A stretch of DNA of 42,188 bases. Origin: a virus. Lineage: Duplodnaviria; Caudoviricetes. A program made the position numbers and the translations under genes. The notes under the pieces are model-generated. The model was not told the origin of the DNA. It ran no database searches and saw nothing but the letters and a program-made list of their open reading frames with translations. Shown piece by piece: positions 7,655 to 39,903 of this stretch (the stretch's first letter is position 1; every line of letters begins with the position of its first letter). Where the stretch lies: positions 1-42,188 of the IMG/VR virus record IMGVR_UViG_3300048577_000526; one strand, 5' to 3'.

Positions 7655-7669
7655 GCGAACGCCGTTCGC
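7655..7669. promoter_or_regulatory. 15-bp palindrome, copy 1 (GCGAACGCCGTTCGC); candidate ParB-binding site
   Basis: Perfect inverted repeat extending to AGGCGAACGCCGTTCGCCT (7653-7671), directly after the ssb stop. Confidence 0.6.
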
Positions 7670-8110
7670 CTAGAACGGGATGTCGTCGTCGAGATCGCCG
7701 CGACCGCCGCCGCCATTTCCGCCATAGTCGTCTTCTGAGTTGGCGCCGGGATCGCGCTCGGCTCGATCGAGCATGGTGACTTCGCCACGGAAGCGCTGCA
7801 GGACAACCTCGGTTGTGTATTTCTCGTTGCCGGACTGATCGGTCCATTTGCGGGTCTGAAGCTGACCCTCGACATAGATCTTCGAGCCTTTCTTCAGCCA
7901 CTTTTCGGCTACGTCGACGAGGCGCTCATTGAAAATGACGATGCGGTGCCACTCGGTCTTTTCCTTGCGCTCGCCGCTGTTCTTGTCCTTCCAGCTCTCC
8001 GACGTGGCGAGCGAGAGGGTCGCAACCTTCGTGCCGTCCTGGGTCGAGCGGATCTCGGGGTCGCGGCCGAGATTGCCGAGGAGGATGACCTTGTTCACGC
8101 TGCCGGCCAT
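7670..8110 (-). CDS. ssb: Single-stranded DNA-binding protein
   Basis: '[40 protein letters not shown]' and acidic tail 'DDDIPF'. Confidence 0.96.
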
Positions 8111-9024
8111 TACTCGGCCTCCTTCTGTTTGCGGGCGGATGCATCCGACACGGTTTCACCCGGTCGGATCTCGACGATGGCCTTCTGCAGCTTGGCGATG
8201 ACATCAGCGACGTGGCCGAAGTTGCAGCGCAAAAGATGTTGAGTGGTCTCGCCGATCGACAGAAGCGGCTCCACGATGGAGAGCAGCTCTTCATGCGCAG
8301 CGCGCTGCACGATGTCGGCAGGTTCCTCGACCTCGTGGTACATAAGCGCCAGTGACGCATGGGCCTCGGCGTTGGAATCGACGGTGGTTCCGCCACGAGG
8401 CATCCAGCCTTGGCCGCAGATCAGATCATGCGCGAAGCCGACAACGGCTCTGGCCGGTCCCCAGGGATCAGCGATGCGAGCAGGCAACGGTTCGGGCGGC
8501 GGATTCTCCCAGGGCGGCGATCCTGGCATGAGGTCGCGCAGCTCGGTCGCGAGCAGCAGCATGTCGGCGTCGTGGATCGCGGCCTCGATATCCTCGGGAA
8601 CGGTGGGGCAAAGCCCGAACGCCAGATAGATGGCTCGGTCGATCGGCCCAGTGATGAGCTTGGCGACGTTGTCGCCCTGAGCCACTTGCTTCAAGGCCAA
8701 TTTGAGCGGCGCCGAGAAGTCGCCGACATACGCCTCATGCGCGTCGTGCAGCAGGGCATAGAGATAGGCGTCCTTGTCATCCGGCATGCGCTCACGCACG
8801 AGGCTCGCGACCCGGCAGGAGTGCTCCGCCACGGAATAGAAGCGGGAGGTGTGCCCGGTCCAGCGGCAGAGATGGCCGAGGCCATAGGCGATGTCGCGCC
8901 AGTCGACCATCTCGGCCGTCGGCACGAGCAGCTCAAAGGCAATGCCGTGGCGGGTGGCAATCCAGGGGCCGCGCGGAGCCGGGATCACGAGCTTTTCGCC
9001 CGGCATCAGGTGGGCAGTCTCCAT
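8110..9024 (-). CDS. HD-domain phosphohydrolase (YfbR/YfdR-like) with a C-terminal extension
   Basis: '[45 protein letters not shown]'; about 100 extra C-terminal residues. Confidence 0.85.
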
Positions 9025-9152
9025 TACAAACCTCTCAGGAAGACGCCGCTGGCGATCGCCAGGGCGGCAAGGATGAAGGCGAGGGCGGTCCAGCCCAGGC
9101 CGGTCAGGGGAATGCGCCGGTTGATGGCGCGGCGGATTGGCGAAACGGGCAT
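9024..9152 (-). CDS. Small single-TM membrane peptide (42 aa); not in the ORF track
   Basis: MPVSPIRRAINRRIPLTGLGWTALAFILAALAIASGVFLRGL. Its TAA overlaps the next ATG (TAATG) and it fills the gap in the operon. Confidence 0.65.
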   Translation of the reverse strand: MPVSPIRRAINRRIPLTGLGWTALAFILAALAIASGVFLRGL

Positions 9153-9162
9153 GGCCTGGCCC

Positions 9163-10305
9163 TCAGATCCGCAACGGCATGACGACACGCGTCAGGCCGG
9201 GATTGGCGGGATAGGTCAACAGGTACGGCGACACGGCATCGCCGTAGGAGAGGGTCGCGACGTCGCCATCCGCCGCCTCCAATGCCGAGATGAAATAGGC
9301 GCCGTTAACGCCGAGCTGCACGGGCTGGGTCGGACCCTGGATCTCGATCTCGTCCTTCGCGATCTCGGCCGCGCTGGGGCCGGTCGAGACGGCAAGGGTT
9401 CCGCTATCCAGGCTCATGCGGATCGCGCGGTCCTTGCGCTTCTCGTCGCGGCCGGTGAAGCCGACGATGCGGGAAACGAGGCCGCGAGCCTCTTCCATCG
9501 GCAGGTCGACCTTCTGCTCATAGCGAGCTGGGATCACGCGGCGGTAATCGGGGAAATTCCCGTCGATCAGCTTCGTGGTAAAGGTGACATCGCCCCAGGC
9601 AAAGGTGATCAGGCTGTGAGAAGCCGTGATCTCCAGGGCGCTATCGGCCGGCAGCAGGCGCTGCAAATGCGCCACGGCCGCGCGGGGCAGGATGATGCCC
9701 GGCGCGATCTTCGACCAGCTCTCGACGGTCTCGGCGTCGGTTTCCTGAATCAGGTGCGTCAGGCGGTGCCCATCCGTGGCCACGAAGTGGAGCCGCGCCT
9801 TGTCCTTCTCAATGTCGGCATGAATGTAGATGCCGTTGAGGTAATACCGGGTCTCTTCGGTCGAAATGCACATGAAACATGCATTGAACGCGCGGATGAT
9901 GGTGCTCGACGCGATGGCAAACAGGCACTCGTTCTTCGCCGCCTTCAGGGCCGGAAACTCCTCCACCGGCAGCAAGTCCAGGCGATAGCGCGCTCGGCCG
10001 ACCTTGACGCTGGCGGCGGTCTCGGCGGCGGCGAAGGAGATCTGGCTGCCTTCCGGGCTGATTGCGGCGATGCGGGCGAGATCGGCCGCGTTGACGCACG
10101 TGGCACCGCCTTCTTCCGGCGCCACATCGACGGCGAGCGTCATGAAGATATCCATGTCGGTTGCCGAAATGGACAGGCGCCCATTCTCGGCCGCGAGCTT
10201 GACGCAGGACAGGATCGGGATGGTGGTCGACGCCTTCACGACCTTGGCCAGGGCGGACATGGCACCGTGCAGCGTCTCGCGTTCAATGGTGAATTTTAGG
10301 CTCAT
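9163..10305 (-). CDS. dnaN: DNA polymerase III beta sliding clamp (phage-encoded)
   Basis: 380 aa with 'PILSCVKL..SATDMD', 'EETRYYLNGIY', 'VATDGHRL', 'KLIDGNFPDYRRVIP' and 'VVMPLRI'. Confidence 0.93.
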   Translation of the reverse strand: MSLKFTIERETLHGAMSALAKVVKASTTIPILSCVKLAAENGRLSISATDMDIFMTLAVDVAPEEGGATCVNAADLARIAAISPEGSQISFAAAETAASVKVGRARYRLDLLPVEEFPALKAAKNECLFAIASSTIIRAFNACFMCISTEETRYYLNGIYIHADIEKDKARLHFVATDGHRLTHLIQETDAETVESWSKIAPGIILPRAAVAHLQRLLPADSALEITASHSLITFAWGDVTFTTKLIDGNFPDYRRVIPARYEQKVDLPMEEARGLVSRIVGFTGRDEKRKDRAIRMSLDSGTLAVSTGPSAAEIAKDEIEIQGPTQPVQLGVNGAYFISALEAADGDVATLSYGDAVSPYLLTYPANPGLTRVVMPLRI

Positions 10306-10790
10306 TCCTCGTTTTCCTCTTCTTCGTCTGGGTCGCCGTCATAATCGCTGTCGTAGAGATCGAGATCGCCGTGCTCCTCGGCGAAGTGCGCCCAATCCGT
10401 CACGCCGTACCGCAGGCCGGCGACGTGATCGCGGATGCGGACGGCGAAGAGGTTGAAGAATTCCTCGATCGCCCTTTCGGTGGCGCATTGGTCCTGAAGG
10501 CCGGCGATGCCGCGCTCCAGATAGGGTTGGAATTCGGCCGCGATTGGAAACTCGGCGATCAGCTCGGCGAGTGGGCGCTCGATATGGGAGGGGATGGCGG
10601 GCAGACCCCATCCAAGATGGGAGCCGCCGCGCGCCTCGCGACGAACGCGGGCCGCGAAGACACCGTGCGGCAGATCCGCATTGGCGTGAAGATCGGTAAG
10701 TGGCGGTGCTTTGCCATCTCGCGCTTGTTCCTCGAGCCGCTCTGCCGCCTTTTCGGGGTTGTTGCGGCCCCATATGTCGATGCTGCTCAT
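10302..10790 (-). CDS. Hypothetical protein with acidic C-terminus
   Basis: ATG at 10790 (MSSIDIWGRNN) directly after the stop of the upstream ORF; overlaps the dnaN start by 4 bp. Confidence 0.6.
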   Translation of the reverse strand: MSSIDIWGRNNPEKAAERLEEQARDGKAPPLTDLHANADLPHGVFAARVRREARGGSHLGWGLPAIPSHIERPLAELIAEFPIAAEFQPYLERGIAGLQDQCATERAIEEFFNLFAVRIRDHVAGLRYGVTDWAHFAEEHGDLDLYDSDYDGDPDEEEENEE

Positions 10791-10791
10791 G

Positions 10792-11037
10792 TCAGCTTTT
10801 CTCCTCTCGCCGCTGCCGCAGCCGTAGGCGAAGGTCGGAAGCCTTGGCCCGGAGGCGGCATGCCTCCTCCGCCAAGGGCTCAGCGGCCTCGCTGTCGCCC
10901 GCTGCTCGCAGGCGCGCGATGTTGATGGTGAGGCTCGCGATCTGAGCATCGAGCTTGCGAGCGTCCTGCTCTTCGAAGGGAACGAGCTCGCCGCGCGGGG
11001 AGCGGCTCGGCCTCCGCACGGCGCGCCGGCAGTTCAT
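10792..11037 (-). CDS. Hypothetical coiled-coil protein
   Basis: 81 aa; 4-bp overlap with the parB stop; fits the operon tiling. Confidence 0.55.
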   Translation of the reverse strand: MNCRRAVRRPSRSPRGELVPFEEQDARKLDAQIASLTINIARLRAAGDSEAAEPLAEEACRLRAKASDLRLRLRQRREEKS

Positions 11038-12842
11038 GCCGCCTCCTCGGCTTCGTCGGCGTCATCGCTCTCGCCGTCTTCGTCGCCGGCAGATTCGTCG
11101 CCTTCGTCGGCCTCGTCGTCTTCCGAGCTGTCGCGTTCTGGCTGCAGCTTGAACCAGTCGGGATGGTCGAGGCCCGCTGCATCGACAATGGCAATCTCGG
11201 CCTCGGTGGCATCGCTGTAGGGCAGGATCAGAGCCCCATCCGAATCCTCGTCGTATTCACTGCGGAATGCCATTTCGGTAAATTCCGCCAACAATTCGTC
11301 GGCACTCAGTGCAGAGATCCGGGACCACTCGCCGTTATCAAAGTCCCGGTCGCTGTAGATGCGCGCCAGGGCGAACCGCGCCTTCAGCAGTGGGTTCGTC
11401 GCGAGGAAAGCCCCCAGCTTTTCATTCAGCTCATCGGCCTCCTTCTCCCGTTTCTCGTTCTCGGCCTGACGCTGCTCATTCTCGATGCGCCAGCGTTCCT
11501 TGCGCTCTTCAGGCGTCTCGTTGTCTTCCTCAGCGTCCTCCGCCTCCTGCGCCTGGGCATTCTCGATATAGGCGGCGAGTCTCTCCCGCGCCGATGAGCC
11601 GGCTTCGAAGAGTTCCGCGCTCGGAACCAGCCCCTCCTGCACTTCGACGTTGCCGCGCCAGTCCATCGCGATGATGACGATGCCTTCCTTCTTCTTCTTG
11701 GTCCGCTCTTTCTCGTAATCGTCACTATCGAACCAGCCGCCGTCCTGAATTTCCACGAAGGCCCAGCCCTCGGCTTCCTTGTCGGCCTTGAGGTCTTCGA
11801 GCGCTGCCTTCTGCAGCTTCTTGAATTCGTTGGCATCGAGCAGCCACAAATTCCCCTCGTCATCCTCGCGCGTGGCGCCGCCATATTTCTTGAGATCGAA
11901 GATCGCCACCGTCGAAAGAACGGCGTTCCGTGTCAGGCGCTTGCGGATGTCCTCGGCCGTGTTGAGGCCGTAGGGATTGGTTTTGATGTCCTTCAGTAGG
12001 CCCTTTTGCTCTTTCTCGTCGGCTGCAGTCAGGGCGCGCGCCTGATCGATCTTGAGCTCACCCTTCGCGAGGGCATCCTTCACCGCTGGCGAGAGCTTCA
12101 TGGCGAGCGCCAATCGTTGCTGGACGAAGCGCTGCGACTTGTGGATGCGATCGGCGATCTGCTGCGTCGACCATTCAAACTGCTCGTGCAGGACACGGAA
12201 GGCGTCGGCCTCTTCGAGCGGGGCGAGATCGATGCGCTGCAGGTTTTCCAGCAAGGCCAGGGCGCGGGCCTCGTTCTCGCCAGCCATGATTACGCGGCAG
12301 GAAATGGCGTGGTTCGCCGGCAAGCGCTTCGCCGCGATCAGCTTGGCGACGGCGCGGTAACGGCGTTCGCCAGCGATCAGCTCGTAAATCGGCGCGCCCT
12401 TGCTGTCGATGTTCGGGTAGGCGCTCGGCGAGGCGACACGCACTACGAGGTTCTGCATCACGCCGTTCTCGGCGATGCTCTCCGCCAGCTCGTCAATGCC
12501 GGCTTCGTCGAATGTCTTACGGGGGTTGATGGGCGACTGGACGATCGCGCCGTGGGGGATGAGGCGGACAGCGGGATCGCCGTTCGCGGCTGCATCGCTG
12601 CTGCTACCGATCTCGCTCTCGTCGAGGCCAATCAGCTCTGCGATCGAGCGGCCGAGGATCGGGGCCAACAGGCGGGCGTTGTCGACGCTCACCGTCTCGA
12701 CCGTGCCGGAGGCTATCTGCTGCACCGTGGTCTTCGGCAGGTTGTGGGCTTCGGCAAAGGCCCGCTGGCTCTGGCCGGTTTCGTCAAGATGGGCCTTCAG
12801 AAGATCGGCGAGGGCGAGCTTCTTCTTCGTCTTCTTCGACAT
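11034..12842 (-). CDS. XRE-HTH / ParB-Spo0J-family CTPase fusion with a long acidic C-terminal region
   Basis: N-terminal HTH 'SQRAFAEAHNLPKTTVQQI'. ParB box 'NPRKTF..ELAESIAENGVMQNLVVR', arginine patch 'IAGERRYRA', 'LENLQRIDL' and central HTH 'STQQIADRIHKSQRFVQQRL'. Confidence 0.9.
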   Translation of the reverse strand: MSKKTKKKLALADLLKAHLDETGQSQRAFAEAHNLPKTTVQQIASGTVETVSVDNARLLAPILGRSIAELIGLDESEIGSSSDAAANGDPAVRLIPHGAIVQSPINPRKTFDEAGIDELAESIAENGVMQNLVVRVASPSAYPNIDSKGAPIYELIAGERRYRAVAKLIAAKRLPANHAISCRVIMAGENEARALALLENLQRIDLAPLEEADAFRVLHEQFEWSTQQIADRIHKSQRFVQQRLALAMKLSPAVKDALAKGELKIDQARALTAADEKEQKGLLKDIKTNPYGLNTAEDIRKRLTRNAVLSTVAIFDLKKYGGATREDDEGNLWLLDANEFKKLQKAALEDLKADKEAEGWAFVEIQDGGWFDSDDYEKERTKKKKEGIVIIAMDWRGNVEVQEGLVPSAELFEAGSSARERLAAYIENAQAQEAEDAEEDNETPEERKERWRIENEQRQAENEKREKEADELNEKLGAFLATNPLLKARFALARIYSDRDFDNGEWSRISALSADELLAEFTEMAFRSEYDEDSDGALILPYSDATEAEIAIVDAAGLDHPDWFKLQPERDSSEDDEADEGDESAGDEDGESDDADEAEEAA

Positions 12843-12868
12843 GAAAGTCTCCGGGATGTGGGGTTGAA

Positions 12869-13075
12869 TCAGTGCAGGAAGGTTGCGCCGTCGAGGCGGG
12901 TAACGCGCTGGAAGCCATCCGCCCCTTCCACCACCGCCCGGTCAGCAAGGTTGCGGATCACGGTGTAGATCCGGCCGTTCAAGATGACGCGGGGCAGAGC
13001 GGGGGCCTCTGCGGTGGGCGCGTCTTCCGACTGCCGGCGCGAAGCGATGGGGAAGGGGAGGATGGCGGCAGTCAT
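12869..13075 (-). CDS. Hypothetical protein
   Basis: 68-aa ORF tiling the leftward operon. Confidence 0.55.
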   Translation of the reverse strand: MTAAILPFPIASRRQSEDAPTAEAPALPRVILNGRIYTVIRNLADRAVVEGADGFQRVTRLDGATFLH

Positions 13076-13078
13076 GGG

Positions 13079-13453
13079 TCAGGCCCTCGTGCCGCGATCA
13101 TGCGCTACGGGGCGAACGGCGTTCGCCTTCTGCTGCAGGAGCGCCGGAACATCGAGGGCGGCGACGACATCTTCATCGCCCAGGTGCTGGCGCTCGTCGT
13201 CGTTGGCGACGAGGTCGGGTGCAAGCACCGCCGCATGTTCGAGGGCCTCGGTGCCCATCATGTCGAGCTCGGTGCGGCTGAAGCCGATCTGGATGAGGTC
13301 GCGGTCGTAGCAGATGCCGAAAACGCGGCGGATGCCGACCATTGCCTGTGCCATCTGCTGGGCGCGGGGCAGCTTGGTATCGAGGGTGGCGACATCGGCG
13401 GGCTGGGGGCGGCGGCTGATGCGACCGGTACCGCCGGCATAAATTCGGGCCAT
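13079..13453 (-). CDS. Hypothetical protein, first gene of the leftward (PL) operon
   Basis: ATG at 13453 (MARIYAGG) preceded by AAAGGA; contains palindrome copy 2 (13112-13126). Confidence 0.55.
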   Translation of the reverse strand: MARIYAGGTGRISRRPQPADVATLDTKLPRAQQMAQAMVGIRRVFGICYDRDLIQIGFSRTELDMMGTEALEHAAVLAPDLVANDDERQHLGDEDVVAALDVPALLQQKANAVRPVAHDRGTRA

Positions 13454-13466
13454 GATCGATCCTTTC

Positions 13467-13509
13467 AAAAGGGGTGGCGGTTTCACGAGGGGACGCGGAA
13501 ACCGCCGCC
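13467..13509 (-). terminator. Intrinsic terminator-like hairpin in the PL leader
   Basis: Minus strand reads GGCGGCGGTTTCCGCG-TCCCCT-CGTGAAACCGCCACC-CC-TTTT. Confidence 0.5.
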
Positions 13510-13530
13510 AGGCTTAGGGGGTGTCCCGAA

Positions 13531-13545
13531 GCGAACGCCGTTCGC
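13531..13545. promoter_or_regulatory. 15-bp palindrome, copy 3, just downstream of PL
   Basis: GCGAACGCCGTTCGC, perfect and intergenic. Confidence 0.6.
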
Positions 13546-13558
13546 CTGTGACGCACTG

Positions 13559-13613
13559 ATGTTTCCATTATGGAAGCATGCTTGTCAACGAAAATGTTTC
13601 CATAATGGAAACA
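13559..13613 (-). promoter_or_regulatory. PL promoter with two CI operators (OL)
   Basis: Minus-strand TTGACA at 13583-13588, flanked by TGTTTCCATTATGGAAGCA (13560-13578) and the perfect palindrome TGTTTCCATAATGGAAACA (13595-13613). Confidence 0.8.
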
Positions 13614-13697
13614 CACGGTGCACGCGGAGCTAATGGGGTGATTTCAAAGGGCTATTTTGCCGAAACCAGCAGGGATGGTAGCTGCCGTTCGGCGGCC

Positions 13698-14192
13698 TTA
13701 CATGGCGGCGAGGATCTCGCGGCGCTTGGCGTCGAATTCTTCCTGGGTGATAAGCCCGTCGCGGAGCAAATCGGACAACTGGCGTATTCTGTCTGCCGAG
13801 CTGACGCTGGCGCCTGCGGCTACGGGTGCGACGGTGGTTGGTTTGCTGCGCAGTTTTTCCAGTTCGGCAACAAAGGACTGGTATTTCGCATCCCCATCAA
13901 AGGTGCGGAATTCCATCTCATCATTTGATGTGTGCATGACGAGTGTTTTGTGTCCCAGCAGCGTCTTGGTCTCGACGGAAGTGAGTTTATCGAGGGGGAT
14001 TGCGTCGAACACCTCGCCTAGAAAACCTTTCCGATAGAACACCACGCGCTGATCGGTCAGGAACAAGGCGCCATTATGCTGGGTGTCCTTTCCCTTGCCC
14101 ATCATCCGGCCCTTATAGCCTTCCATTGATGCAATGACGGCCTCGCCTGGCTTAAGTTTGCTCTCGGCAAAGGCCTTTCCGTGCTTGCTCAT
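13698..14192 (-). CDS. Bacterial PH-domain + SHOCT-domain protein, downstream of cI
   Basis: 'GALFLTDQRVVFYRKGFLG..IPLDKLTSVE' (bacterial PH) and C-terminal 'ADRIRQLSDLLRDGLITQEEFDAKRREIL' (SHOCT); RBS GGAGG. Confidence 0.82.
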   Translation of the reverse strand: MSKHGKAFAESKLKPGEAVIASMEGYKGRMMGKGKDTQHNGALFLTDQRVVFYRKGFLGEVFDAIPLDKLTSVETKTLLGHKTLVMHTSNDEMEFRTFDGDAKYQSFVAELEKLRSKPTTVAPVAAGASVSSADRIRQLSDLLRDGLITQEEFDAKRREILAAM

Positions 14193-14226
14193 CTTCCCCC
14201 TCCAAATCGGCGCGCGTTGAGCAACC

Positions 14227-14934
14227 TCACAACTCTGGGCGATATGAACCTATCACAAGCCCGGTGATGCGAATGTTGTTCGCATGCTCTTCAAAGTCGC
14301 CATTGCCGTCCCAAGCGTCAGGAACACGCCAGGGCTGCGCAAATTCCGGATGGTCGGATCGTGGCCACAGCCAGGCATGACCGTCGCGGTCATATTCGAT
14401 CTCCTTGACCGTTGCTTCCATTTGGCCGGAATTGTTCGTGCGATGCACGACGACGCGCTGCCCATTGCTGGGTGCCCACTCTTCCATGTCGATTGTGGCG
14501 ATGACGACGATGAAGGTCCCGTCGGGATAAATGCGGTTCATGCTGGGGCCGCAGACCTTGAGGGCATATCTACGCAGGCCCCGATACTTCGGCGGTACCG
14601 GAACATAGATGTCGAATTGATCGTCGTCGCAGTATTCCAGCGCTTCTTTGAAATCGCCGGCCTTGACCTCGCCAATGACGCGGATCGGCTCAACAGGTTG
14701 TGGGCGTAGATCCACGTTCGGATCGATATCCAATTGATCGTCGATCAGCTTGAGCACCTTGCTCTCCGGCCATTCGCAAAACCGTGCGATGGTCGCGACC
14801 TCGTTGGCTTTGATCAGCCGAGTGCCGTTAATCAGCTTTGTCATGCTCGCGCGCGACAGGCCGAGCAGGTCGCCAAGACCAGTTTGCGTCTTGTCGAGGG
14901 CCTTGATTCGGTCCTGAAGCCACTTGTTTCCCAT
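14227..14934 (-). CDS. cI: CI-like repressor (HTH + S24 autopeptidase)
   Basis: HTH 'TQTGLGDLLGLSRASMTKLING', Ala-Gly site 'GEVKAG', Ser motif 'VCGPSM' and Lys motif 'ATVKE'. The likely start is ATG at 14934 (MGNKWLQ). Confidence 0.9.
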   Translation of the reverse strand: MGNKWLQDRIKALDKTQTGLGDLLGLSRASMTKLINGTRLIKANEVATIARFCEWPESKVLKLIDDQLDIDPNVDLRPQPVEPIRVIGEVKAGDFKEALEYCDDDQFDIYVPVPPKYRGLRRYALKVCGPSMNRIYPDGTFIVVIATIDMEEWAPSNGQRVVVHRTNNSGQMEATVKEIEYDRDGHAWLWPRSDHPEFAQPWRVPDAWDGNGDFEEHANNIRITGLVIGSYRPEL

Positions 14935-15023
14935 TTGGAAATACTGGCTAGGCCTTTGACCTAATTCAGCTTCTATTTTGGAAACGTTTTTACTTGACCG
15001 GTTGCTTCCAAAATGGAAACAAT
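14925..15023. promoter_or_regulatory. OR region: three CI/Cro operators and the PR promoter
   Basis: TGTTTCCCATTTGGAAATA (14925-14943), AGCTTCTATTTTGGAAACG (14968-14986) and TGCTTCCAAAATGGAAACA (15003-15021). -35 TTGACC at 14994-14999; possible -10 AACAAT at 15018-15023. Confidence 0.8.
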
Positions 15024-15030
15024 GCTGCCC

Positions 15031-15348
15031 ATGAACGTCGCAGAGCATGTCATCTCCATTTGCGGTGGCGCCGCCATCGTTGCTTCTTGGCTCGGATTGG
15101 AGCCGCCGGCCGTCTATCGCTGGACCTATCCGCGCGGGAGGGGCGGCACAGGCGGCCTGATTCCCAGTGTTCATCAATCGCCGCTCCTCCGCGCCGCGAA
15201 GCTCGCGGGAAAGCCGCTGCAGCCCTCCGACTTCTTTGACCCGGACGTTGTGAGCATGGCGATCAACGACAACGAAACTGTCACTCCGCCGGTCGAGGCG
15301 ACAGGGGGAAGTGAATCTTCAGAATCCCAACATCGGATGGCCCAATGA
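15031..15348 (+). CDS. cro: Cro-like HTH protein
   Basis: 'VISICGGAAIVASWLGLEPPAVYRWTYP..GGTGGLIP..L.PSDFF'; divergent from cI. Confidence 0.8.
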   Translation: MNVAEHVISICGGAAIVASWLGLEPPAVYRWTYPRGRGGTGGLIPSVHQSPLLRAAKLAGKPLQPSDFFDPDVVSMAINDNETVTPPVEATGGSESSESQHRMAQ

Positions 15349-15770
15349 CCGCCGCAATCGATCCGTTCCGGGCCGCGCTGCATCAGATGCGGAACAATCT
15401 TTGCCTTCTCGGACGCTGGCACATTCCGGTGCGTTGGCGCTCGGCCACTCGCCCTCTGCCCCTAGATAAGCTGCCACGTGACAAGATCCTCGGACCGATG
15501 ATCGATATCGGCACGGATCAAGTCATGCTGTCGTTTTCCGATGCGGAAGATCAGCCCATGCGCCTGATCCTCTCGAAGCTCGAAGCAGCCAAAACGGCCC
15601 TGTATCTGGCTCGGGAGCTGGGCGTCGTCAGTGTCGATCAGTTGGCCGAAATGGTCTCCCAGTCCCCCAGGTCGGATGGAATGCCGAGTGACCCGGTGTC
15701 GGTTCCGCAGGAGGGCGAGAACGTATGTCCGCCAGCCAAATCGTCTGCAGCTTGTGAGGGGGAGAAGTAA
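15345..15770 (+). CDS. Hypothetical protein
   Basis: ATGA coupling to cro; its 3' third overlaps an antisense ORF. Confidence 0.45.
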   Translation: MTAAIDPFRAALHQMRNNLCLLGRWHIPVRWRSATRPLPLDKLPRDKILGPMIDIGTDQVMLSFSDAEDQPMRLILSKLEAAKTALYLARELGVVSVDQLAEMVSQSPRSDGMPSDPVSVPQEGENVCPPAKSSAACEGEK

Positions 15771-15874
15771 GTGCCCAGGCCTTCGCCATTGAATCCGGCT
15801 GCCCATCGGCCGTCGCGACATAGCAGCACTTCGGCAATGCCGCGTCGTGTCTTGAACCGGTATCCAACAATCAT
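15638..15874 (-). CDS. Small antisense protein (78 aa) with motif 'LGTYFSPSQAADDLAGGHTFSPS..DTGSLGIPSDLGDW'
   Basis: AAGGAG RBS upstream of the ATG at 15874. The sequence is protein-like and resembles, from recall, a conserved prophage hypothetical protein. Confidence 0.6.
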   Translation of the reverse strand: MIVGYRFKTRRGIAEVLLCRDGRWAAGFNGEGLGTYFSPSQAADDLAGGHTFSPSCGTDTGSLGIPSDLGDWETISAN

Positions 15875-15949
15875 TCTGCACTCCTTCGGTGTTGGGACGT
15901 CGAAGGTAGCAGGCGGTGGGCGGTTGGGGAACAAGCGGGCGGTGACCCA

Positions 15950-16444
15950 ATGACCGCCGAGCGCAAGAATCCCAACCGCACCCTCCTCAAGCCTCGCCCG
16001 GCCGGCACTCTCAAGGCCGCGATGGCCGCGCTGGTCGAGGCCAGCGGCGGCACGGTGCGCGCCGCCGATCTGCTCGGCCTGGGGCAGGCCCAGGTGCAGC
16101 GCTGCTCGGATGCGGCCGAGCCGCGATACGAGTTGAAACTCAGCCACGTCCGCACCCTTGAACGCGATTGCGGTCAGCCGATCGTCACCGCCTACCTCGC
16201 GACCGAGGCGCGCTGCGCCCTGGTTCCGCTGGCGGCGATGGTCGACGCGCCACTTGGAACCGACATGGCGCGCTTCGGCGAGCGGGCTTCAAAGCTCTTC
16301 GCGGCTTATGCGGCGGCGAGCGCAGATCAGAAGCTTACCCCGCAAGAAGCGGGAGAGTTGAAAGCCGAGGTGCAGGCGGTGATGTCGGCACTCGCGGCAA
16401 TGCTGCCGGATCTTGAAGAGATCATGGGGGCCACGAATGTCTGA
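15950..16444 (+). CDS. Phage regulatory protein, CII-like
   Basis: HTH-like N-terminus '[24 protein letters not shown]' and C-terminal '[12 protein letters not shown]'; located downstream of cro. Confidence 0.6.
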
Positions 16445-16688
16445 CGGCGTCGGCAACAACTCGGCCGAGCACCTCAAATCCTTCATCGAGCGCATCGAGC
16501 GCCTGGAGGAGGAGAAGACCAATATCGGCAACGACATCAAGGAAGTCTACGCCGAGGCCAAGGGCACCGGCTTCGATACCAAGACAATCCGCAAGATCAT
16601 CGCGCTTCGAAAGCTGGAACCGAACGATCGGCAGGAACAAGAGGAGCTGCTCGACATCTACATGCGGGCAGTGGGGATGATTGCGTAA
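16437..16688 (+). CDS. DUF2312/UPF0335 protein (GapR-like nucleoid-associated protein)
   Basis: '[62 protein letters not shown]'. Confidence 0.92.
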
Positions 16689-16737: not shown

Positions 16738-17070
16738 GTGAAACCGTCAGCATCGCCGCCCACGCCGGCCCCGATTTCCCACGCTCACCTCATCTATGTC
16801 CGCCATCCCATGCCCGGTGATTTTATCGAGCTGGTGACGGTGCGTGATGGCGAACCGCGTTCGCTGGTTCTGTCGGAAAGGCGGGCCTTGGGCCTCATTC
16901 AGCAGCTCGTGCCATGCGTGGAGAGTACGCGGCGCTTCCCGATCTTCGACCCCAATGGCGCGCGTCTGGGCGATATCGACGGCGACCGTGTTCTGCTCAT
17001 TCTTTCCGACCTCGCGCGAGCGGTTCATACCAACCGCCTGCATGAGCGGAGGCAGCGGAATGGCCGATAG
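16738..17070 (+). CDS. Hypothetical protein
   Basis: GTG start with a GAGGG RBS; overlaps the primase start. Confidence 0.5.
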   Translation: MKPSASPPTPAPISHAHLIYVRHPMPGDFIELVTVRDGEPRSLVLSERRALGLIQQLVPCVESTRRFPIFDPNGARLGDIDGDRVLLILSDLARAVHTNRLHERRQRNGR

Positions 17071-20656: not shown

Positions 20657-21259
20657 ATGGAAAAGCGAGCAAAGCTGACAGCGCCCAATCTGCCCCAGAC
20701 CCGAGCCCGCGACGTGCGGGCGGCAAAGGATGTGCAGGCCATGTGGACCGGCGAGCCCGAGGCGCGGCCGTCGAATGATCGGCCCGCTGTCGTGCTGAAG
20801 CACCCAAGGCGGGATGCCACTGGCGAACGCCGTGCGCGCGATGCCTCGGACCCGGTGTCGCAATGGATTGTCGTGATCGAGCAGCAGCTCCACGAGGCTG
20901 CCGATGTTGTGCGGCGTATGGGCAACTCCGGCTATAAGCTGGGCAGCAGTGTCGCTTGGCCCGCCTTCTTGCGCGAGGCAATTGAGAGTGCCGATGAAGG
21001 CGTCGAACTGCCGCGCGTCATTCCCGACAATGATGCTGCCGATCGCGCAATTGCTTTCCTCGTCCTGCTCTCGCGCTTGCCACAGTATGAACGCCAACTC
21101 ATCGCAGCGCGTATCGTTGCGCGCCAATCCTTCCGCGATTGCGCTGCCTACTTTCATCGTTCCAAGTCTCAGATTGAACGTGACTACCGCATGGCCCTCA
21201 TCGCCTTCGCTTACGTCGTCAAAAATTCTGCGGGACAGATGGGACAAAAAGGGGTATGA
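20657..21259 (+). CDS. Probable late-gene regulator (Q-position protein with a sigma-70 region 4-like HTH)
   Basis: C-terminal 'LSRLPQYERQLIAARIVARQSFRDCAAYFHRSKSQIERDY'; sits between replication and packaging genes. Confidence 0.6.
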   Translation: MEKRAKLTAPNLPQTRARDVRAAKDVQAMWTGEPEARPSNDRPAVVLKHPRRDATGERRARDASDPVSQWIVVIEQQLHEAADVVRRMGNSGYKLGSSVAWPAFLREAIESADEGVELPRVIPDNDAADRAIAFLVLLSRLPQYERQLIAARIVARQSFRDCAAYFHRSKSQIERDYRMALIAFAYVVKNSAGQMGQKGV

Positions 21260-21516: not shown

Positions 21517-22158
21517 ATGCAGATGACGCAAGGCTCGGCCGAGGCGAACGGCGTTCGCCAGCTCGTGACGAAGAGTGAGCTGGCCCGGCGCATTGGCGTG
21601 TCGGCTGGCCGCGTGTCGCAGTATCTAACCGAGGGAAAAATCTACGGCGACGCCATCGTCGGCGAGGGCCGCGCGGCCATGATCGATTACGGCCTCGCTC
21701 GCTCGCAGTTGGGCCTGGCGCTCGACCCCGTCCAGATGACGGCACAGATGCGATCCCTGCCGGAGGGCGAAAGCCCAGAGCTGCCGATGGCGTCGTCGGC
21801 GCCGGTCGTATCGGATGAGCAGCGTCGTCATCAATCGATCAAGGTGCAGCAGGCCGAGCTGACGCTGCAGCGCCAGATCCGCGAGGACAAGGAATCGCGG
21901 GGCGTTTACATGCGGACCGATGCGGCCCGCCGCGAGTTTGCCAAGTCCATCGTCGACCTCGTCGATGGCATGGATCAATTGATCGGTGTGCTGATCGAGA
22001 AGATCGCGACCGAGCTGAAACTGGAAAAGCAACAAGTCGCTGTGATTCTGCGGCGTGAGTGGCGGGAATGGCGTGAGCGCCAAGCCACCCAGGCGCGAGA
22101 GAGTGTCGCGACAAGCGAGGAATTCCTCGCAGACGAGGACGAGACTGGCGATGGCTGA
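21517..22158 (+). CDS. Terminase small subunit (Nu1-like)
   Basis: N-terminal HTH 'TKSELARRIGVSAGRVSQY' and a coiled coil; directly precedes the large subunit. Confidence 0.78.
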   Translation: MQMTQGSAEANGVRQLVTKSELARRIGVSAGRVSQYLTEGKIYGDAIVGEGRAAMIDYGLARSQLGLALDPVQMTAQMRSLPEGESPELPMASSAPVVSDEQRRHQSIKVQQAELTLQRQIREDKESRGVYMRTDAARREFAKSIVDLVDGMDQLIGVLIEKIATELKLEKQQVAVILRREWREWRERQATQARESVATSEEFLADEDETGDG

Positions 22159-28961: not shown

Positions 28962-28986
28962 CCCAGGCGAACGGCGTTCGCCTGGG
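28962..28986. promoter_or_regulatory. 15-bp palindrome, copy 5, extended to 25 bp
   Basis: CCCAGGCGAACGGCGTTCGCCTGGG, intergenic after the capsid gene. Confidence 0.6.
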
Positions 28987-32506: not shown

Positions 32507-32541
32507 AGCCCGGCAACGCTCACGTATAAGGAGAAACCAAT

Positions 32542-32910
32542 ATGAGCAGCAATCGCGTTGCCGGCGTCGCCTTTATCAAGGTCGACGGCCAGCAATATGC
32601 CCTGCGCGGCAACCTGACCGTCAACATCGATGCGTTCACGCGCACCGGGGTTGCCGGTCAGGACGGCGTGCATGGCTACACCGAGGCGCCGCAGGTGCCC
32701 TGGATCTCCGGCGATATCTCGGATTCCGCCGGCCTGTCGTTGCAGGATATCGCCAAGATCACGGATTCGACCGTGGTGGCCGAGCTTGCCAACGGCAAAT
32801 CGTACATCCTGCGCAACGCCTGGGCGGCGGAATCGCGGGAGCTCAACGCCGCCGAGGGCACGATCAGCGTGCGGTTCGAAGGCATGCAGGGCGAGGAGAT
32901 CAAGCCGTGA
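32542..32910 (+). CDS. Tail tube protein (Mu-like)
   Basis: 'RVAGVAFIKVDG..GQDGVHGYTE..ELANGK..VRFEG'. Confidence 0.88.
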   Translation: MSSNRVAGVAFIKVDGQQYALRGNLTVNIDAFTRTGVAGQDGVHGYTEAPQVPWISGDISDSAGLSLQDIAKITDSTVVAELANGKSYILRNAWAAESRELNAAEGTISVRFEGMQGEEIKP

Positions 32911-33215
32911 GCCAGGAAACCGAGAGCAAGCCGGTGACGCTGAAGAAGCCGATCAATGTCGGCTCGACGGTGATCCGAGAGCTGGACGTTCGCGAGCCGA
33001 CGATGGGCGACATCGAGGAGGCGTCGAAGCTGAGCGGGAACAAGGTGACGGTCAGCCTTCGTCTCCTGGAGAGGCTGGTGTTTGCGCCAGAGTTTCCCGA
33101 CACGCCGATCACGCTTGCCATGCTGCGAAAGCTGCCGGCCTCGGATGGCACGAAGCTCAATACGAAGGTGTCGGATTTTTTGCCCGACGACCCGGCGACT
33201 GGCGGGACCGATTAG
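32907..33215 (+). CDS. Tail assembly chaperone (Mu gp41 / P2 gpE-like)
   Basis: GTG start coupled to the tube gene; 'VTLKKPI..ELDVREPTMGDI'; ends with the slippery sequence GGATTTTTTG. Confidence 0.8.
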   Translation: MSQETESKPVTLKKPINVGSTVIRELDVREPTMGDIEEASKLSGNKVTVSLRLLERLVFAPEFPDTPITLAMLRKLPASDGTKLNTKVSDFLPDDPATGGTD

Positions 33216-33343
33216 CGGATCTCGCTTACGTCTTCCACTGGCAGCCGAGCGAGCTCATGGCGCTGACGGCGTCTGAGCTCGCGCGCTGGCACAATCAGGC
33301 GCTCCGCATCCTGCGAGAAGTAAAAGGTCCAGGAAATGTCTGA
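33176..33343 (+). CDS. -1 frameshift extension of the tail chaperone (gpE'/GT-like)
   Basis: The -1 frame reads 'FFARRPGDWRDRLADLAYVFHWQPSELMALTASELARW', matching the P2 gpE' 'ADxAxxFHWxPSE' motif. Confidence 0.8.
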   Translation, partial: FFARRPGDWRDRLADLAYVFHWQPSELMALTASELARWHNQALRILREVKGPGNV

Positions 33344-35009: not shown

Positions 35010-35025
35010 AGTGAGGGGATCGGCG

Positions 35026-36225
35026 ATGGCCTGGCGTGATGAACTTCGGCCGGCAAGCTTCCGGGGAAATGCATTCTTCGTGGGGCAGGCCGGCGGTGCA
35101 TCTGGCCGGCGCCTCGCCGTCCACGAGTATCCGCAGCGGGACGAGCCGTTTGCGGAGGACATGGGCCGCTCCACGCGGCGCTTTACCCTGACCGGCTACG
35201 TGCTGGGGCCGGATTACATGGCCGCGCGGGATGCGCTCATTCTGGCCTGCGAGGTCGAAGGACCGGGGCCGCTGGTGCATCCCTATCGCGGCGAGATCCA
35301 GGTCTCGTGCGAGTCCGTGCGCTGGACCGAATCTCAGGAAGAGGGCGGCATCTGCCGCTTCGAGCTGAGCTTCGTCGAAGGCGTCGAGAACCGCTACCCC
35401 GCCGCGCCGGTCAATACGCGCGGAGCCGTCATCGATGCCGCCTCTCTCTCCTCGGAGGCGTCGATGGCTGGCTTCGCGCGACTCTATCGCTGGCAGGGAT
35501 TGCAGGATTTTATCGTCGACACCTCTGCCGGTGGCTTGCGTGACTTCGCCGCTTCGGTGGCGGGATTGCAGCAGGGTGTTGGCGCGGTGTCAGACGGCGG
35601 GCTGGTGACATCGCTCGATGATGTGGCCCGCACGATCTTCGGCCAGGCTGACAGCATCGCTCGATCGGACGGGATTCCCGGCCAGATCGGCAACGCGCTC
35701 TCGCTGCTGCGGCGCGTTCATGCTGACGCGGCGACGGCCATGCGCGGGTTGGCGACGTTGCGGGACTTCGTCGTGTCGTCGCCGGAGCCGATCTACCTGA
35801 CCAGCAATCGGGAGATCGAGGCGCGGAACGCGACGGGACTGGCGAACCTCGTTCGCGAGGTCGCTGTAACAGAGCAGGCCAGGGCGAGTGCCAACCGGAC
35901 CTTTGTCTCCTATCAGGAGGCGATCGCCGTGCGGGACAGCTTGGTTTCCGATCTGGAAACGGTGCTGGTCGCGGCCGGCAACCGTGGTGACGACGATGCC
36001 TATCGCGCCGTTACCGGCCTGCAGACGGCGGTGACGCGGGATTTGACCGAGCGCGGGGCCAGCCTCGCGCACATCGTGCACCCGATTGTGCCGAGCGCGT
36101 TGCCATCGCTGGTGGCGGCGCACCGGTTTCACATCGATGTCGATCGTGAGACCGAGGTTATTGCGCGCAACCCAGGTCCGCACCCGGCCTGGATGCGGGA
36201 GAGGCTCGAAGTTCTCTCCCGCTAG
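35026..36225 (+). CDS. DNA circularization protein (Mu gpN-like)
   Basis: 'MAWRDELRPASFRG..GRRLAVHEYPQRD..EDMGR..GPLVHP'. Confidence 0.9.
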   Translation: MAWRDELRPASFRGNAFFVGQAGGASGRRLAVHEYPQRDEPFAEDMGRSTRRFTLTGYVLGPDYMAARDALILACEVEGPGPLVHPYRGEIQVSCESVRWTESQEEGGICRFELSFVEGVENRYPAAPVNTRGAVIDAASLSSEASMAGFARLYRWQGLQDFIVDTSAGGLRDFAASVAGLQQGVGAVSDGGLVTSLDDVARTIFGQADSIARSDGIPGQIGNALSLLRRVHADAATAMRGLATLRDFVVSSPEPIYLTSNREIEARNATGLANLVREVAVTEQARASANRTFVSYQEAIAVRDSLVSDLETVLVAAGNRGDDDAYRAVTGLQTAVTRDLTERGASLAHIVHPIVPSALPSLVAAHRFHIDVDRETEVIARNPGPHPAWMRERLEVLSR

Positions 36226-36260
36226 AGCACCGGTCCACGCGCCCGGCCTTGAGAGGGAAC

Positions 36261-37427
36261 ATGCTGACATTGATGATTGCCGGACGCCTTCTCGAAGGCT
36301 GGACGGCGGTGAGCGTCAGCCGGGCGGTCGATAGCGCGGCGTCGAGCTTCGATATCGAGCTGACCGAGAAGTGGTCGCCGAAGAAAACCGAGGGTGGCGG
36401 TAGCGAACCTTTTGCCGGGCAGATCCGGCCGGGAGCACCCTGCCGCGTCCTGCTCGATGGGGATCTGGTGATCACGGGTTATGTCGATACCTATAGCCCG
36501 AGCTATGACGCTACCACGCACTCGGTTCGCGTGGCCGGCCGAAGCCGCACGGGGGATGTGGTCGATTGCTCGGCGGTCGTGCCGGGCGGTCAATTCAGTG
36601 GCTATGACGTTGCACAGATCGCCGAGCGTTTGTGCAGCGAGGTCGGCGTTGGTGTCGTTGTTGAATCCAGTCCTGGCGCGCCGTTTCCGGACGTCCAGGT
36701 GCAGCAGGGGGAGAGCATCTTTGAACTCATCGAAAGGCTGTGCCGCCTGCGGGCGCTTCTGGTCTGCGACAATGAAGCTGGAAATCTCGTCCTTACCCGC
36801 GCTGGCATCCGAAGCTCTGGCGGCACGCTACGGCAAGGCGACAATATCCTTACCGCCACCGCCGATCTCTCAGTCGGCGAACGATTCAGCGACTACATCG
36901 TCAAGGGGCAGCAGGCTTCAAGCGACGATGTCAATGGGCTTGAGGCGACTGAAACGGTAGCGCGCATTCACGATCCCGGCGTCGACCGATACCGGCCCAA
37001 GCTGATCGTGGCCGAGGGCCAGGCGGACGTGGCAACGGCGCGGGACCGCGCCAATTGGGAGAAGCTGACGCGTGGGGCGAACGGCGTTCGCGCCACCATC
37101 ACTGTCCAGGGGTGGCGGGATGCCGTCTCTGGCCGACTGTGGCGGGCGAATGAGATGGTCGCTGTGGAATCGCCCTGGCTGGGGCTGACGCGGGATCTGC
37201 TGATCGCCGCTGTCAATTACCGGCTGGACGAGGGCGGCACGGTCGCGGAGCTGACGCTGGCGCCGCCCGAGGCCTTCACGCCGGAGCCGGCCTCGCCGGA
37301 CAGCGCAAGCGGTGGCGGCGGGCTGTGGTCGATCCTTGACGGCGAGGGTGCGTTGACCCCGCCGGTGGGCCGTGTCGAGGGCAATGATCTGGATCTCACC
37401 GCACCGGTGCGGGCGGGGCCGCGTTAA
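36261..37427 (+). CDS. Baseplate hub protein (Mu gp44/P-like)
   Basis: 'GWTAVSVSR..FDIELTE', 'VITGYVD', 'GRSRTGDVVDCS', 'ERFSDYIVKGQ' and 'TVQGWR'. Confidence 0.88.
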   Translation: MLTLMIAGRLLEGWTAVSVSRAVDSAASSFDIELTEKWSPKKTEGGGSEPFAGQIRPGAPCRVLLDGDLVITGYVDTYSPSYDATTHSVRVAGRSRTGDVVDCSAVVPGGQFSGYDVAQIAERLCSEVGVGVVVESSPGAPFPDVQVQQGESIFELIERLCRLRALLVCDNEAGNLVLTRAGIRSSGGTLRQGDNILTATADLSVGERFSDYIVKGQQASSDDVNGLEATETVARIHDPGVDRYRPKLIVAEGQADVATARDRANWEKLTRGANGVRATITVQGWRDAVSGRLWRANEMVAVESPWLGLTRDLLIAAVNYRLDEGGTVAELTLAPPEAFTPEPASPDSASGGGGLWSILDGEGALTPPVGRVEGNDLDLTAPVRAGPR

Positions 37428-37453
37428 GTAAACCTGGGCTGACGAGGCTGGAA

Positions 37454-38020
37454 ATGGTGAAGGATGCCTTGCGCGACCTCATCCGCCGCACGCGGATGAG
37501 CATTGGCCGCGCCGTCCTGGCGGCGATCAATGACGCCACCGGCCTGCAGGAGACACAGATCCGGCTGATGCAGGACGAGGTCAAGGGGGGTGTCGCTCAC
37601 CTGCAGAGCTACGGTCTCACGGTCCACCCGCTGCCGGGGGCCGAGGGCCTTGTGCTCTTTGTCGGCGGCAACCGCGATCATGGTGTGGCGATCAAGTTTG
37701 ACGATCGGCGCTTCCGTATCCGCAACCTGGCGCCGGGCGAGGTCGCGGTCTACACACACGAGAATCTGCTGGAAGGAGGGCATCGCATCGTCCTCCGTAA
37801 GAATCAGGATCTCGAAGTGGCGATCGGCCGCGACATCAACAGCGACGTCGGGCGCGACGTGAACGAGACGGTGGGTCGCGACCATATCGAGGAAGTTGCT
37901 CGGACGTGGAAGGTAACGGCCGGTGAGCGCGCGGAAATCGTGGTCGGCAGCAGCAAGATCGAAGTCCTGCCGGACCGAATTCGCCTCACGACGCCGCTCT
38001 ATGAAGCGTTCAAGGCATAG
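37454..38020 (+). CDS. Baseplate spike protein (Mu gp45/gpV-like)
   Basis: 'HLQSYGLTVHPLPGAE..GGNRDHGV..DDRRFR..LAPGEVAVY'. Confidence 0.88.
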   Translation: MVKDALRDLIRRTRMSIGRAVLAAINDATGLQETQIRLMQDEVKGGVAHLQSYGLTVHPLPGAEGLVLFVGGNRDHGVAIKFDDRRFRIRNLAPGEVAVYTHENLLEGGHRIVLRKNQDLEVAIGRDINSDVGRDVNETVGRDHIEEVARTWKVTAGERAEIVVGSSKIEVLPDRIRLTTPLYEAFKA

Positions 38021-38030
38021 GATCTAGGCG

Positions 38031-38303
38031 ATGACATATGGCGTCGCGGTTCAGAACCTCGACTATGCGGGCGGTCAGCAGCTGATCGAAGTCAACGACT
38101 GGCACCTGATCGAAGGCAAACGGATCGTGGTACTGGGGGACCTTGTCGAGAGCCACGGTAGTTCTCCGCACTCGCCCCCGCCACCAATGGTTCAGTGTTC
38201 GGATTGGTACTTCGTGGGCGGGATCGGCGTGTGTCGCGAGGGCCATTTGGCGGCGTGTGGCCACGCGACCACGGGCCGGCCTTGGTATCGCATTTCATCG
38301 TGA
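38031..38303 (+). CDS. PAAR-like spike tip protein
   Basis: 'IVVLGDLVESH..H..VGGIGVCREGHLAACGH' with His/Cys candidate metal ligands; directly after the spike gene. Confidence 0.65.
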   Translation: MTYGVAVQNLDYAGGQQLIEVNDWHLIEGKRIVVLGDLVESHGSSPHSPPPPMVQCSDWYFVGGIGVCREGHLAACGHATTGRPWYRISS

Positions 38304-38309
38304 GGGCGC

Positions 38310-38786
38310 ATGGTCGATTTCTCGCATACTTGGTCGGCGGCGGCGCTCTCGGGCGATTGGCTGCTGGAGCCGCCGGGGCTCTCGGCGGAGGCGGATCTGC
38401 GCACGGCGGTCATCATCTCGTTGATGACTGATCGCCTGGCGTTGGTCGACGATCCGCTCCCCGATGAGGCGACGACGCGTCGGGGCTGGTGGGCCGATAC
38501 CGGGGCGCCGGGTCTGGAGGTGGGCAACATCGGCTCGCGGCTGTGGCTGCTCTGCCGGGAAAAGCGCACCGAGGACGTGCGGCGCCGGGCGATCGAATAT
38601 TCGCGGGAAGCCCTGCGATGGTTGATCGATGACGGCATCGCCAAGTCGATCGAGGTCGAGGCCGAATGGAACGGCATCGATCGCCTCGATCTTCTCATCA
38701 CCATCTACCGCAACGACGGCGAGCCGATCCGGCAGCGCCTCGATTGGGTATGGGATCAATTGAACGGGCTTTCATCGCCCACCTGA
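38310..38786 (+). CDS. Baseplate protein, Mu gp46-like
   Basis: 'LRTAVIISLMTDR..RRGWWAD..IGSRLWLL.REK..EALRWLIDDG'. Confidence 0.9.
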   Translation: MVDFSHTWSAAALSGDWLLEPPGLSAEADLRTAVIISLMTDRLALVDDPLPDEATTRRGWWADTGAPGLEVGNIGSRLWLLCREKRTEDVRRRAIEYSREALRWLIDDGIAKSIEVEAEWNGIDRLDLLITIYRNDGEPIRQRLDWVWDQLNGLSSPT

Positions 38787-38808
38787 CGGATCAGCCCGAG
38801 GAATTAGA

Positions 38809-39903
38809 ATGTTTCAGCGACCGACCTTGACTGAGCTGCGCCAGCGCAGCGCGGCGGATTTCAGTGCGCGCCTGCCGGGGGCGGATTCGCGTCTCCGTCA
38901 CAGCAACATCCGCGTCTCCTCGGAAGTGATGGCGGGCCTGACGCATTTGGCTTACGGCCGCCTCGAATGGGTCGTGCAGCAGACGATCCCCGACACGGCT
39001 AACGCACAGTTCCTGGAGCGCTGGTGCACCATCTTCGGCCTCGCCCGGAAGGGTGCGGTGCGGGCATCGGGCACTATTCGCTTCACGGGTCAGGACGGTG
39101 CCGAGATCGCGCTCGGCTCGGAGGTCCAATCGGGCGCGGTGAACGGCGTTCGCGTCCTTTACCGCACGACCGACGACGCCATCATTGCTGGCGGGGAGGC
39201 GATCGTGCCGGCCGAGGCGGTGTCGCCGGGTGCTGCCGGCAATCTGGACGACGGGGTGACGGTGACGCTGATTGCCGCCCTGCCGGCGATCGTCGCCCAG
39301 GCGACGCTGCAGTCGGCCATGACGGGCGGCGCCGACGAGGAGCCGGACGAAGAGCTCCGCGCTCGGCTGCTCTTCGAGCTGCAGAAGCCGCCGCATGGCG
39401 GCAATGCCAATGATTACATCCGCTGGGCCTTGGAGGTTCCGGGTGTCACGCGGGCCTGGGTCTCGCCGCTGGAATTCGGCGCCGGCACAGTGGTTGTGCG
39501 GTTCATGATGGACCGCGTGCGCGCCGATGACGATGGCTTCCCGCAGGGGGATGGCTGGCCCACCTACACCGACGATCTGGCGGAGGTGGCCGATCACATC
39601 GCGCCGCTGCGGCCGGTGACGGCCAACGTCTTCGTAGTGGCGCCCGTGCCGCACCCGATCAATGTGACGGTCAAGGGACTCACGCCGGATACCCCGGAAA
39701 CCCGGCTCGCCGTCGAGCTGGAGCTTCGGGATCTGCTGCTGCGTTCGGCAGCACCGGGCCTCACCATTCCGCGCTCCTGGCTGTGGGCCGCGATCGCCTC
39801 GGCCTCGGGGGAATACCGGCACGAGGTTCTTGTGCCGGCGGCCGATGTCACGGTGTCGATCGGCGATCTCGCGACGCTGGGCACGCTCACCTTTACCGCT
39901 TGA
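38809..39903 (+). CDS. Baseplate J/gp47 protein
   Basis: 'FQRPTL', 'GGADEEPDEELRARLL..PPHGGNANDYIRWALEVPGVTRAWV'. Confidence 0.92.
   Translation: MFQRPTLTELRQRSAADFSARLPGADSRLRHSNIRVSSEVMAGLTHLAYGRLEWVVQQTIPDTANAQFLERWCTIFGLARKGAVRASGTIRFTGQDGAEIALGSEVQSGAVNGVRVLYRTTDDAIIAGGEAIVPAEAVSPGAAGNLDDGVTVTLIAALPAIVAQATLQSAMTGGADEEPDEELRARLLFELQKPPHGGNANDYIRWALEVPGVTRAWVSPLEFGAGTVVVRFMMDRVRADDDGFPQGDGWPTYTDDLAEVADHIAPLRPVTANVFVVAPVPHPINVTVKGLTPDTPETRLAVELELRDLLLRSAAPGLTIPRSWLWAAIASASGEYRHEVLVPAADVTVSIGDLATLGTLTFTA

Follow-up and report, generated by a model that had tools for sequence, protein, structure and literature searches.

Dispersed 15-bp palindromes follow one ParB lineage across phages and are its predicted loading sites

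The virus record IMGVR_UViG_3300048577_000526 (42,188 bases, 65% complete; analysed at full length and called the window here) contains a lambdoid prophage with about ten dispersed copies of a 15-bp palindrome, GCGAAC-N3-GTTCGC, and a gene for a 602-residue ParB (11034..12842, minus strand), the predicted reader of the palindromes. An earlier interpretation of the letters alone (the sequence-only reading) had proposed that these are sites where the phage's own ParB loads for long-range repression, compaction or segregation. Our comparison across phages supports the first part, and the palindromes very probably serve as loading sites for a cytidine triphosphate (CTP)-dependent ParB clamp made by the phage itself. 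Of the proposed uses, segregation appears unlikely and repression in the lysogen is disfavoured. A coat on phage DNA fits best, and we lean towards a clamp that covers phage DNA outside the chromosome at an early stage following its entry or its induction.

All six perfect copies listed in the sequence-only reading are present. Three are intergenic as described: 7655..7669 directly past the ssb stop codon, 13531..13545 ending 14 bp short of the leftmost CI-type operator, in a region that a relative retains although its immunity module differs, and 28967..28981 directly past the major capsid gene. The others encode ANAVR in the open reading frame (ORF) 13079-13486 (13112..13126, 270 bp upstream of the parB start) or ANGVR at the 5' end of terS (21544..21558) and in the baseplate hub gene (37077..37091). 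The near-perfect copies are likewise found. The copy at 35842..35856, in a DNA-circularisation/baseplate gene, has intact arms and a changed centre, that at 39139..39153 in the baseplate J gene has one mismatch giving a GTGAAC arm, the main form in genomes G052 and G054, and that at 20823..20837 in a Q-like gene is a one-mismatch, probable member. Weaker copies at 12356, 12573, 14269 and 30599 exist too, with two to three mismatches, and are not individually distinguishable from chance as 5.4 matches are expected at up to three mismatches. Two further copies that had been overlooked keep both 6-bp arms around a changed centre: 4457..4471 in the integrase gene, with the centre type that prevails in G055 and G146, and 16850..16864 in the ORF 16738-17070, a form common in G087.

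Chance does not account for this set, as the sequence-only reading had estimated: GCGAAC-N3-GTTCGC occurs nine times against 0.005 expected under a third-order Markov model and is the top-ranking spaced palindrome of the window, with zero relaxed copies in the host part (1-3469). Comparison of 193 sites revealed no strong extension past 15 bases. GAAC and GTTC are never separated by one, two or four bases in the window, which argues for a fixed geometry and disfavours identity with the Firmicute LexA box. Apart from the CI operator, the palindrome survey of the window yielded no second dispersed word. The claim of selection at the DNA level also held. Synonymous codon resampling of 47 window genes gave a mean of 0.09 relaxed sites (maximum 2 in 300 resamplings) and 0.02 perfect ones, compared with seven and three observed, so that a codon artefact is ruled out as the source of the palindromes. 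Moreover, in the baseplate proteins of G051, the closest relative without ParB, three positions that correspond to sites have different residues, as in the baseplate hub, or are missing from the alignment as a gap, which indicates that the word is written in at the DNA level.

Outside the window, the exact word occurs in an estimated 520 stored viral stretches. Among the 50 longest of 103 listed contigs carrying it, 31 have four or more copies, seven have two or three and twelve have one, and ParB matches are found in 27/31, 2/7 and 2/12 of these groups. The densest array seen in the whole analysis, in G058, comprises about 18-20 sites roughly 2.5 kb apart with outer bases C/G. A hidden Markov model built from the ParBs of motif-positive records adds G039 and raises the contrast to 28/31 multi-copy against 2/12 single-copy records with this ParB type (Fisher p 8e-6), but this rescue covered eight records of which none was single-copy, and without it the count stays at 27/31. 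The three remaining multi-copy records without a ParB match are 58-77% complete. As a control picked by terminase and not by the word, we used 35 of 80 terminase-related loci, on contigs of at least 30 kb and with one motif-picked record left out. Only G146 has more than one copy (eight) and it is also the sole record with this ParB type, while 28/35 have no ParB match and zero or one copy. The phage G142, which encodes L603, a long ParB of another type, has zero copies. Carriers of the word are diverse in their head, tail and replication modules, and ParB is the gene they have in common.

The form of the word also follows the ParB. For this comparison we took 49 of 80 ParB-related loci, on long contigs outside the motif set, 45 of them filled nearly whole; the relatives were found with alignment queries, since the window ParB alone recovered no relative and the window TerL alone only one. 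Thirteen records have this word family, nine a 16-bp TGCA-type word (three of them weak), three an AT-rich word and one another word, and 23 showed nothing strong. Where arginine occupies the position of window R238, the word family is present in 11/12 records; without it, in 2/37. Variant arms follow sub-clades or single lineages (GCAC in G056 and G062, GAAT in G065), and G063 shares a loose A-rich form with a phage-plasmid of Azospirillum thermophilum. The word classes cluster on a quick-search tree of 92 ParB cores, the GAAC label requiring 8 changes versus 30.8 after shuffling. A separate ParB clade that includes the cultured phages VarioGold (L318, OP296522) and Aval (L319, OP131589) goes with the 16-bp TGCA-type word; these two phages have three to six dispersed palindromes and a different ParB helix and constitute a ready bench system, VarioGold being inducible with mitomycin (PMC9658991). 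Cultured yong2 and Maja have no strong word. The 'phage' record L321 (ON073792), which has polysaccharide genes, ParA-ParB and five dispersed 16-bp palindromes, resembles a plasmid.

The window ParB has the features expected of such a clamp. Its residues 92-303 comprise ParB_N plus HTH_ParB with intact nucleotide motifs (NPR, GERRYR/GERRYRA, ENLQR), matches to PF02195 and TIGR00180 exceed the cut-off, and both GxxRxxA and ENxxR of the ParB CTPase clamp family are present. The central helix-turn-helix (HTH) matches PF17762 with the recognition helix SQRFVQQRL, in which Q and R stand where ParB R173 and T179 align (Q and K in Noc). A structure model of residues 1-420 (predicted local distance difference test score 90) fits ParB and Noc DNA-binding domains at 2.4-2.7 Å and matches Noc/ParB at about 3 Å as well as KorB (8QA9/8QA8); the residues 421-602 outside the model form an acidic, low-complexity tail. 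A third domain aligns up to residue 366 with L603, a plasmid-type ParB whose relatives reside on conjugative plasmids. The ParB core has no plasmid matches at 1e-20, and the Noc family score (TIGR04285) of 122.6 bits is far below the cut-off of 315. By analogy, site-stimulated CTP binding, closure and sliding would be expected of the window ParB; some ParB folds bind nucleotides other than CTP (PMC12704722). The N-terminal part is an Xre-like HTH. Among word carriers this domain is Xre-type, winged or absent, so the central HTH is the likely reader.

ParA is missing from most of these phages. The window has no match to PF13614, nor do 44/48 records searched, and the N-terminal ParA-binding motif, as defined in PMC12704722, occurs in 0/34 ParB N-termini. 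Neither mark of a type Ia ParABS system, a ParA beside parB or the ParA-binding motif, is therefore found. Three of the four records with a ParA match are RepA phage-plasmid-like records in which ParA lies near the RepA-like gene, 8-15 kb from parB; in two of them a small gene directly follows a short ParA. We noted that G019, G087, G063 and L610-L611 (NZ_CP029360) are phage-plasmid-like, with RepA, and keep the long ParB and the site array; the first three also encode a separate short ParA. Given the lack of ParA and of its binding motif, ParA-driven segregation is unlikely. It is improbable, too, that the palindromes are centromeres which segregate circular phage DNA through a host ParA or SMC. 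The ParB fold with intact CTP motifs and the ParA-like gene in four records would agree with a centromere, and dispersed centromeres are known from N15 and RK2 (cited in PMC3235114). However, ParA is rare and, where found, sits by the RepA gene away from parB, and partition does not require ten even sites.

The arrangement of the sites bears on what loading would be for. Intervals between sites are more uniform than chance predicts in 22/23 genomes, 14 of them with p<0.05, and their median is 3.9 kb, with site definitions tuned for each genome; 125/183 sites, about two thirds, lie inside called ORFs compared with a coding share of 0.84. Long-range transcription control by a ParB that loads at the palindromes, as in KorB repression or BisD activation, acting through the N-terminal HTH or a partner at phage promoters, is the main rival to a coat, although we regard it as rather unlikely to be the main role. 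In its favour, 10/34 aligned ParBs have an Xre-type HTH fused to the N-terminus and several others have winged-helix-type domains there, and one site adjoins the leftward operators. Sites are also mildly enriched near parB, and there is a weak excess around the starts of terL (p 0.04) and primase (p 0.015), both values being uncorrected and driven by related genomes. Precedents are described in PMC11790492 and PMC12409273. Against it, the sites have an even distribution, fall within genes for the most part and show no enrichment near cI, int or portal starts, and the N-terminal HTH differs in type or is absent in phages with the same word. Nor did we identify a KorA- or BisC-like partner (the KorA family has no match among 54 window ORFs scanned) or, besides the CI operator, a second dispersed word in the window. 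KorB-like repression of the lysogen in particular is disfavoured because parB is located in the leftward early arm by cI, from where we infer its expression, and the sites are evenly spaced and largely genic. A coat on extrachromosomal DNA fits best because the late genes are evenly covered, ParA is absent and parB belongs to the early arm.

Could another protein read the palindrome? A phage repressor acting as at L5 stoperators, a phage protein travelling with parB or a host factor would each be a very improbable reader, even if the word is better conserved than the ParB helix, tblastn traces small regulators poorly and mycobacteriophage L5 has dispersed repressor sites (PMC5712189). The L5 sites are asymmetric and mostly intergenic; stoperators are oriented and bound by the immunity repressor, while the window sites are palindromes. 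The cI-like repressor (14227..15177, minus strand; HTH plus S24 peptidase) was considered as reader and rejected. Its 19-bp operators, two at 13560..13613 and more copies near 14925 and 15003, are a different word, as the sequence-only reading had stated, and a close relative, represented by contigs in two metagenome studies, matches window 12950-13554 before its sequence diverges over operators, cI and cro, so that the immunity module is swapped while the neighbouring sites are kept. In the contig of run X1, none of the differences listed (7 of 8) falls in the two palindromes. For window 13555-15288, close relatives from wastewater and sludge metagenomes have a different immunity module in which the PH-domain gene appears inverted; the break at 13554 separates the ParB-type site from the first CI operator. 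Another reader is further opposed by the shared ParB amid otherwise varying modules.

A host reader is excluded by proxy. Bacterial genomes hold about 11,000 stretches with the word in 596 Gb (an estimate from one 64th), about one per 54 Mb, so the word is almost absent from bacterial chromosomes. We examined 32 of 120 word-holding genome loci as a proxy for the host background. Nineteen of these 32 genomes, picked for having a copy, have exactly one. Where copies are more numerous they cluster: 5/6 copies of G102, a genome of 5.1 Mb, fall within 32 kb, the two perfect copies of G112 and three near ones within 38 kb, and 6/10 copies of G106 on a single 27-kb contig. All three regions contain parB, terL and portal.

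Besides the one-sided rescue described above, several observations weigh against the ParB-loading and coating interpretation. In 23 of the 49 ParB-picked records there is no strong dispersed palindrome. Phages that share the word can have very different recognition helices (for instance SQRFVQQRL versus SSKDVTDKL), so a simple HTH code cannot be claimed. The GAAC-label group is not one supported clade on the quick-search tree, and the p-values overstate independence, since motif-positive ParBs made up the alignment with which the ParB-picked set was retrieved and there is relatedness among the records; the co-variation counts are likewise not independent. Even spacing is not significant in the window taken alone (p 0.10). 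The mild enrichment of sites near parB (nearest fifth in 12/24 genomes, combined p 0.005) is compatible with regulation too. Finally, the word also occurs without a ParB, in a few small elements that encode an integrase along with head or primase genes. The sequence-only reading had counted the word in relatives lacking parB as evidence against ParB, and these satellite-like elements bear that out in part.

Among the ParB-less carriers, L010 has two perfect copies and L065 and L027 one each, a weak indication as they were picked by the word, and G120:C243 has four relaxed ones within 10 kb. Each of these is either a fragment or a short record, and the word is mostly missing in their relatives. 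L010, L065, L027, L495:1-11740 and L492 are small, and most have an integrase; the highest number of copies among them is four in 4.6 kb (L492). Such elements may borrow a helper's clamp, or they may weaken the link to ParB. Borrowing by satellites as a family-wide trait was tested and is unsupported: 75/79 capsid-related loci (1.07 Mb in all), which also serve as a control not picked by the word, have no site. The other four comprise L010, a locus nearly identical to it, a fragment and a phage with ParB.

Taken together, we propose the following course. About ten sites, mostly in genes, span the prophage, and the word tracks one ParB lineage across distant phages. In all likelihood, a ParB dimer would read both arms through its central HTH, bind CTP, close and slide, like chromosomal ParB, Noc and KorB. 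Given the position of parB next to cI in the leftward early arm, the protein is expected to be made directly after infection or induction, and would act on injected or excised DNA rather than on the silent prophage. With sites spread evenly, clamps sliding a few kilobases each could cover the whole phage genome without a ParA motor. In the weakest step, the coat might organise and shield the DNA as one self-marked nucleoprotein body, from which the phage would presumably benefit, with autoregulation of parB as a side role. As a tentative extension, which we find possible rather than probable, a deep lineage of temperate phages and phage-plasmids may share a self-tag every 4 kb, even at a cost in protein sequence, with a ParA-less, HerB-like CTP clamp that wraps incoming or excised DNA in a protective or organising coat without a shell, and some satellites may copy the tag to borrow their helper's clamp.

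The prophage has further features of interest. In the window, a host acrB-type gene and tRNA-Gln(CTG) (3396..3469, plus strand), the likely integration site and left prophage boundary, adjoin the integrase ORF (3477-4661) with which the prophage starts. The leftward arm (SNF2, ssb, beta clamp, parB) is followed by cI/cro/cII, gapR and primase, and the late genes combine lambda-type head genes with a contractile tail. Scanning for promoters revealed none directed leftward in the vicinity of the operators, so PL is placed from the layout. An unusual DNA-organising set consists of a full-length beta sliding clamp (9163-10305), an SNF2-type ATPase (5159-6877) and a GapR homologue (16413-16688). 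The presence of GapR and of similar prophages in named genomes points to an alphaproteobacterial host. The frame 32630-33343 ends in a P2 GpE-like match, suggesting a tail chaperone frameshift pair.

These findings give one large lineage of orphan ParBs a predicted target, with word variants tied to ParB clades, and thereby a defined 15-mer with which to address binding, specificity and function one by one. Should the coat model prove true, the lambdoid cycle would include an extra step in which a CTP clamp marks the phage's own DNA, and new clamp-site pairs would become available for labelling DNA loci.

In regard to known systems, N15 SopB is reportedly also a phage ParB with dispersed inverted repeats, yet N15 is said to be a plasmid prophage with SopA, whereas the window phage integrates at tRNA-Gln and has no ParA. 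The OB operator letters quoted in the sequence-only reading are absent from the text of the KorB paper. KorB of RK2 is a ParB-family CTP clamp with dispersed operators (PMC11790492; a cited title counts 12 OB on RK2). The window shares with it many dispersed palindromes on a mobile element and the structural match to 8QA9/8QA8, but the word is different, no IncC/ParA or KorA was found, the element integrates and the sites are even and mostly in genes. The best sequence and fold matches are to chromosomal ParB-parS and Noc-NBS (PMC7383237), and Noc, too, is an orphan ParB that acts from dispersed sites in the absence of a ParA; unlike parS, the word is an odd-centred 15-mer, and the window ParB has an extra N-terminal HTH, a third domain and a score far below the Noc cut-off. 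HerB (YfjB) of plasmid F (PMC13370423) is a long ParB, with a third domain after the HTH and a C-terminal D4 dimerisation dome, that is made straight after DNA entry without a ParA and binds the host chromosome, where a consensus site was not found. The third domain would connect the window ParB to it indirectly, via the L603 alignment, as HerB is not among the PDB matches; unlike HerB, the window element would tag its own DNA, and the L603 phage lacks the word. The BisD-bisS system of ICEclc, with two sites 2 kb apart, the partner BisC and a ParA (PMC12409273), resembles the window in its ParB clamp, integrating element, odd-centred palindromes in genes and extra regulatory domain, and differs from its roughly ten genome-wide sites. 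Orphan ParB genes are common in prophages with largely unknown targets and roles, and sites are not named in the accessible part of PMC12704722; for the VarioGold ParB, the available part of PMC9658991 gives an annotation only, and other phage ParB types are the subject of PMC13229309 and PMC6536676. In main texts of mostly non-subscription papers, targeted searches turned up no report of arrays like these in phages that integrate. Judged from sequence, the window system appears to belong to the ParB-parS/KorB-OB kind.

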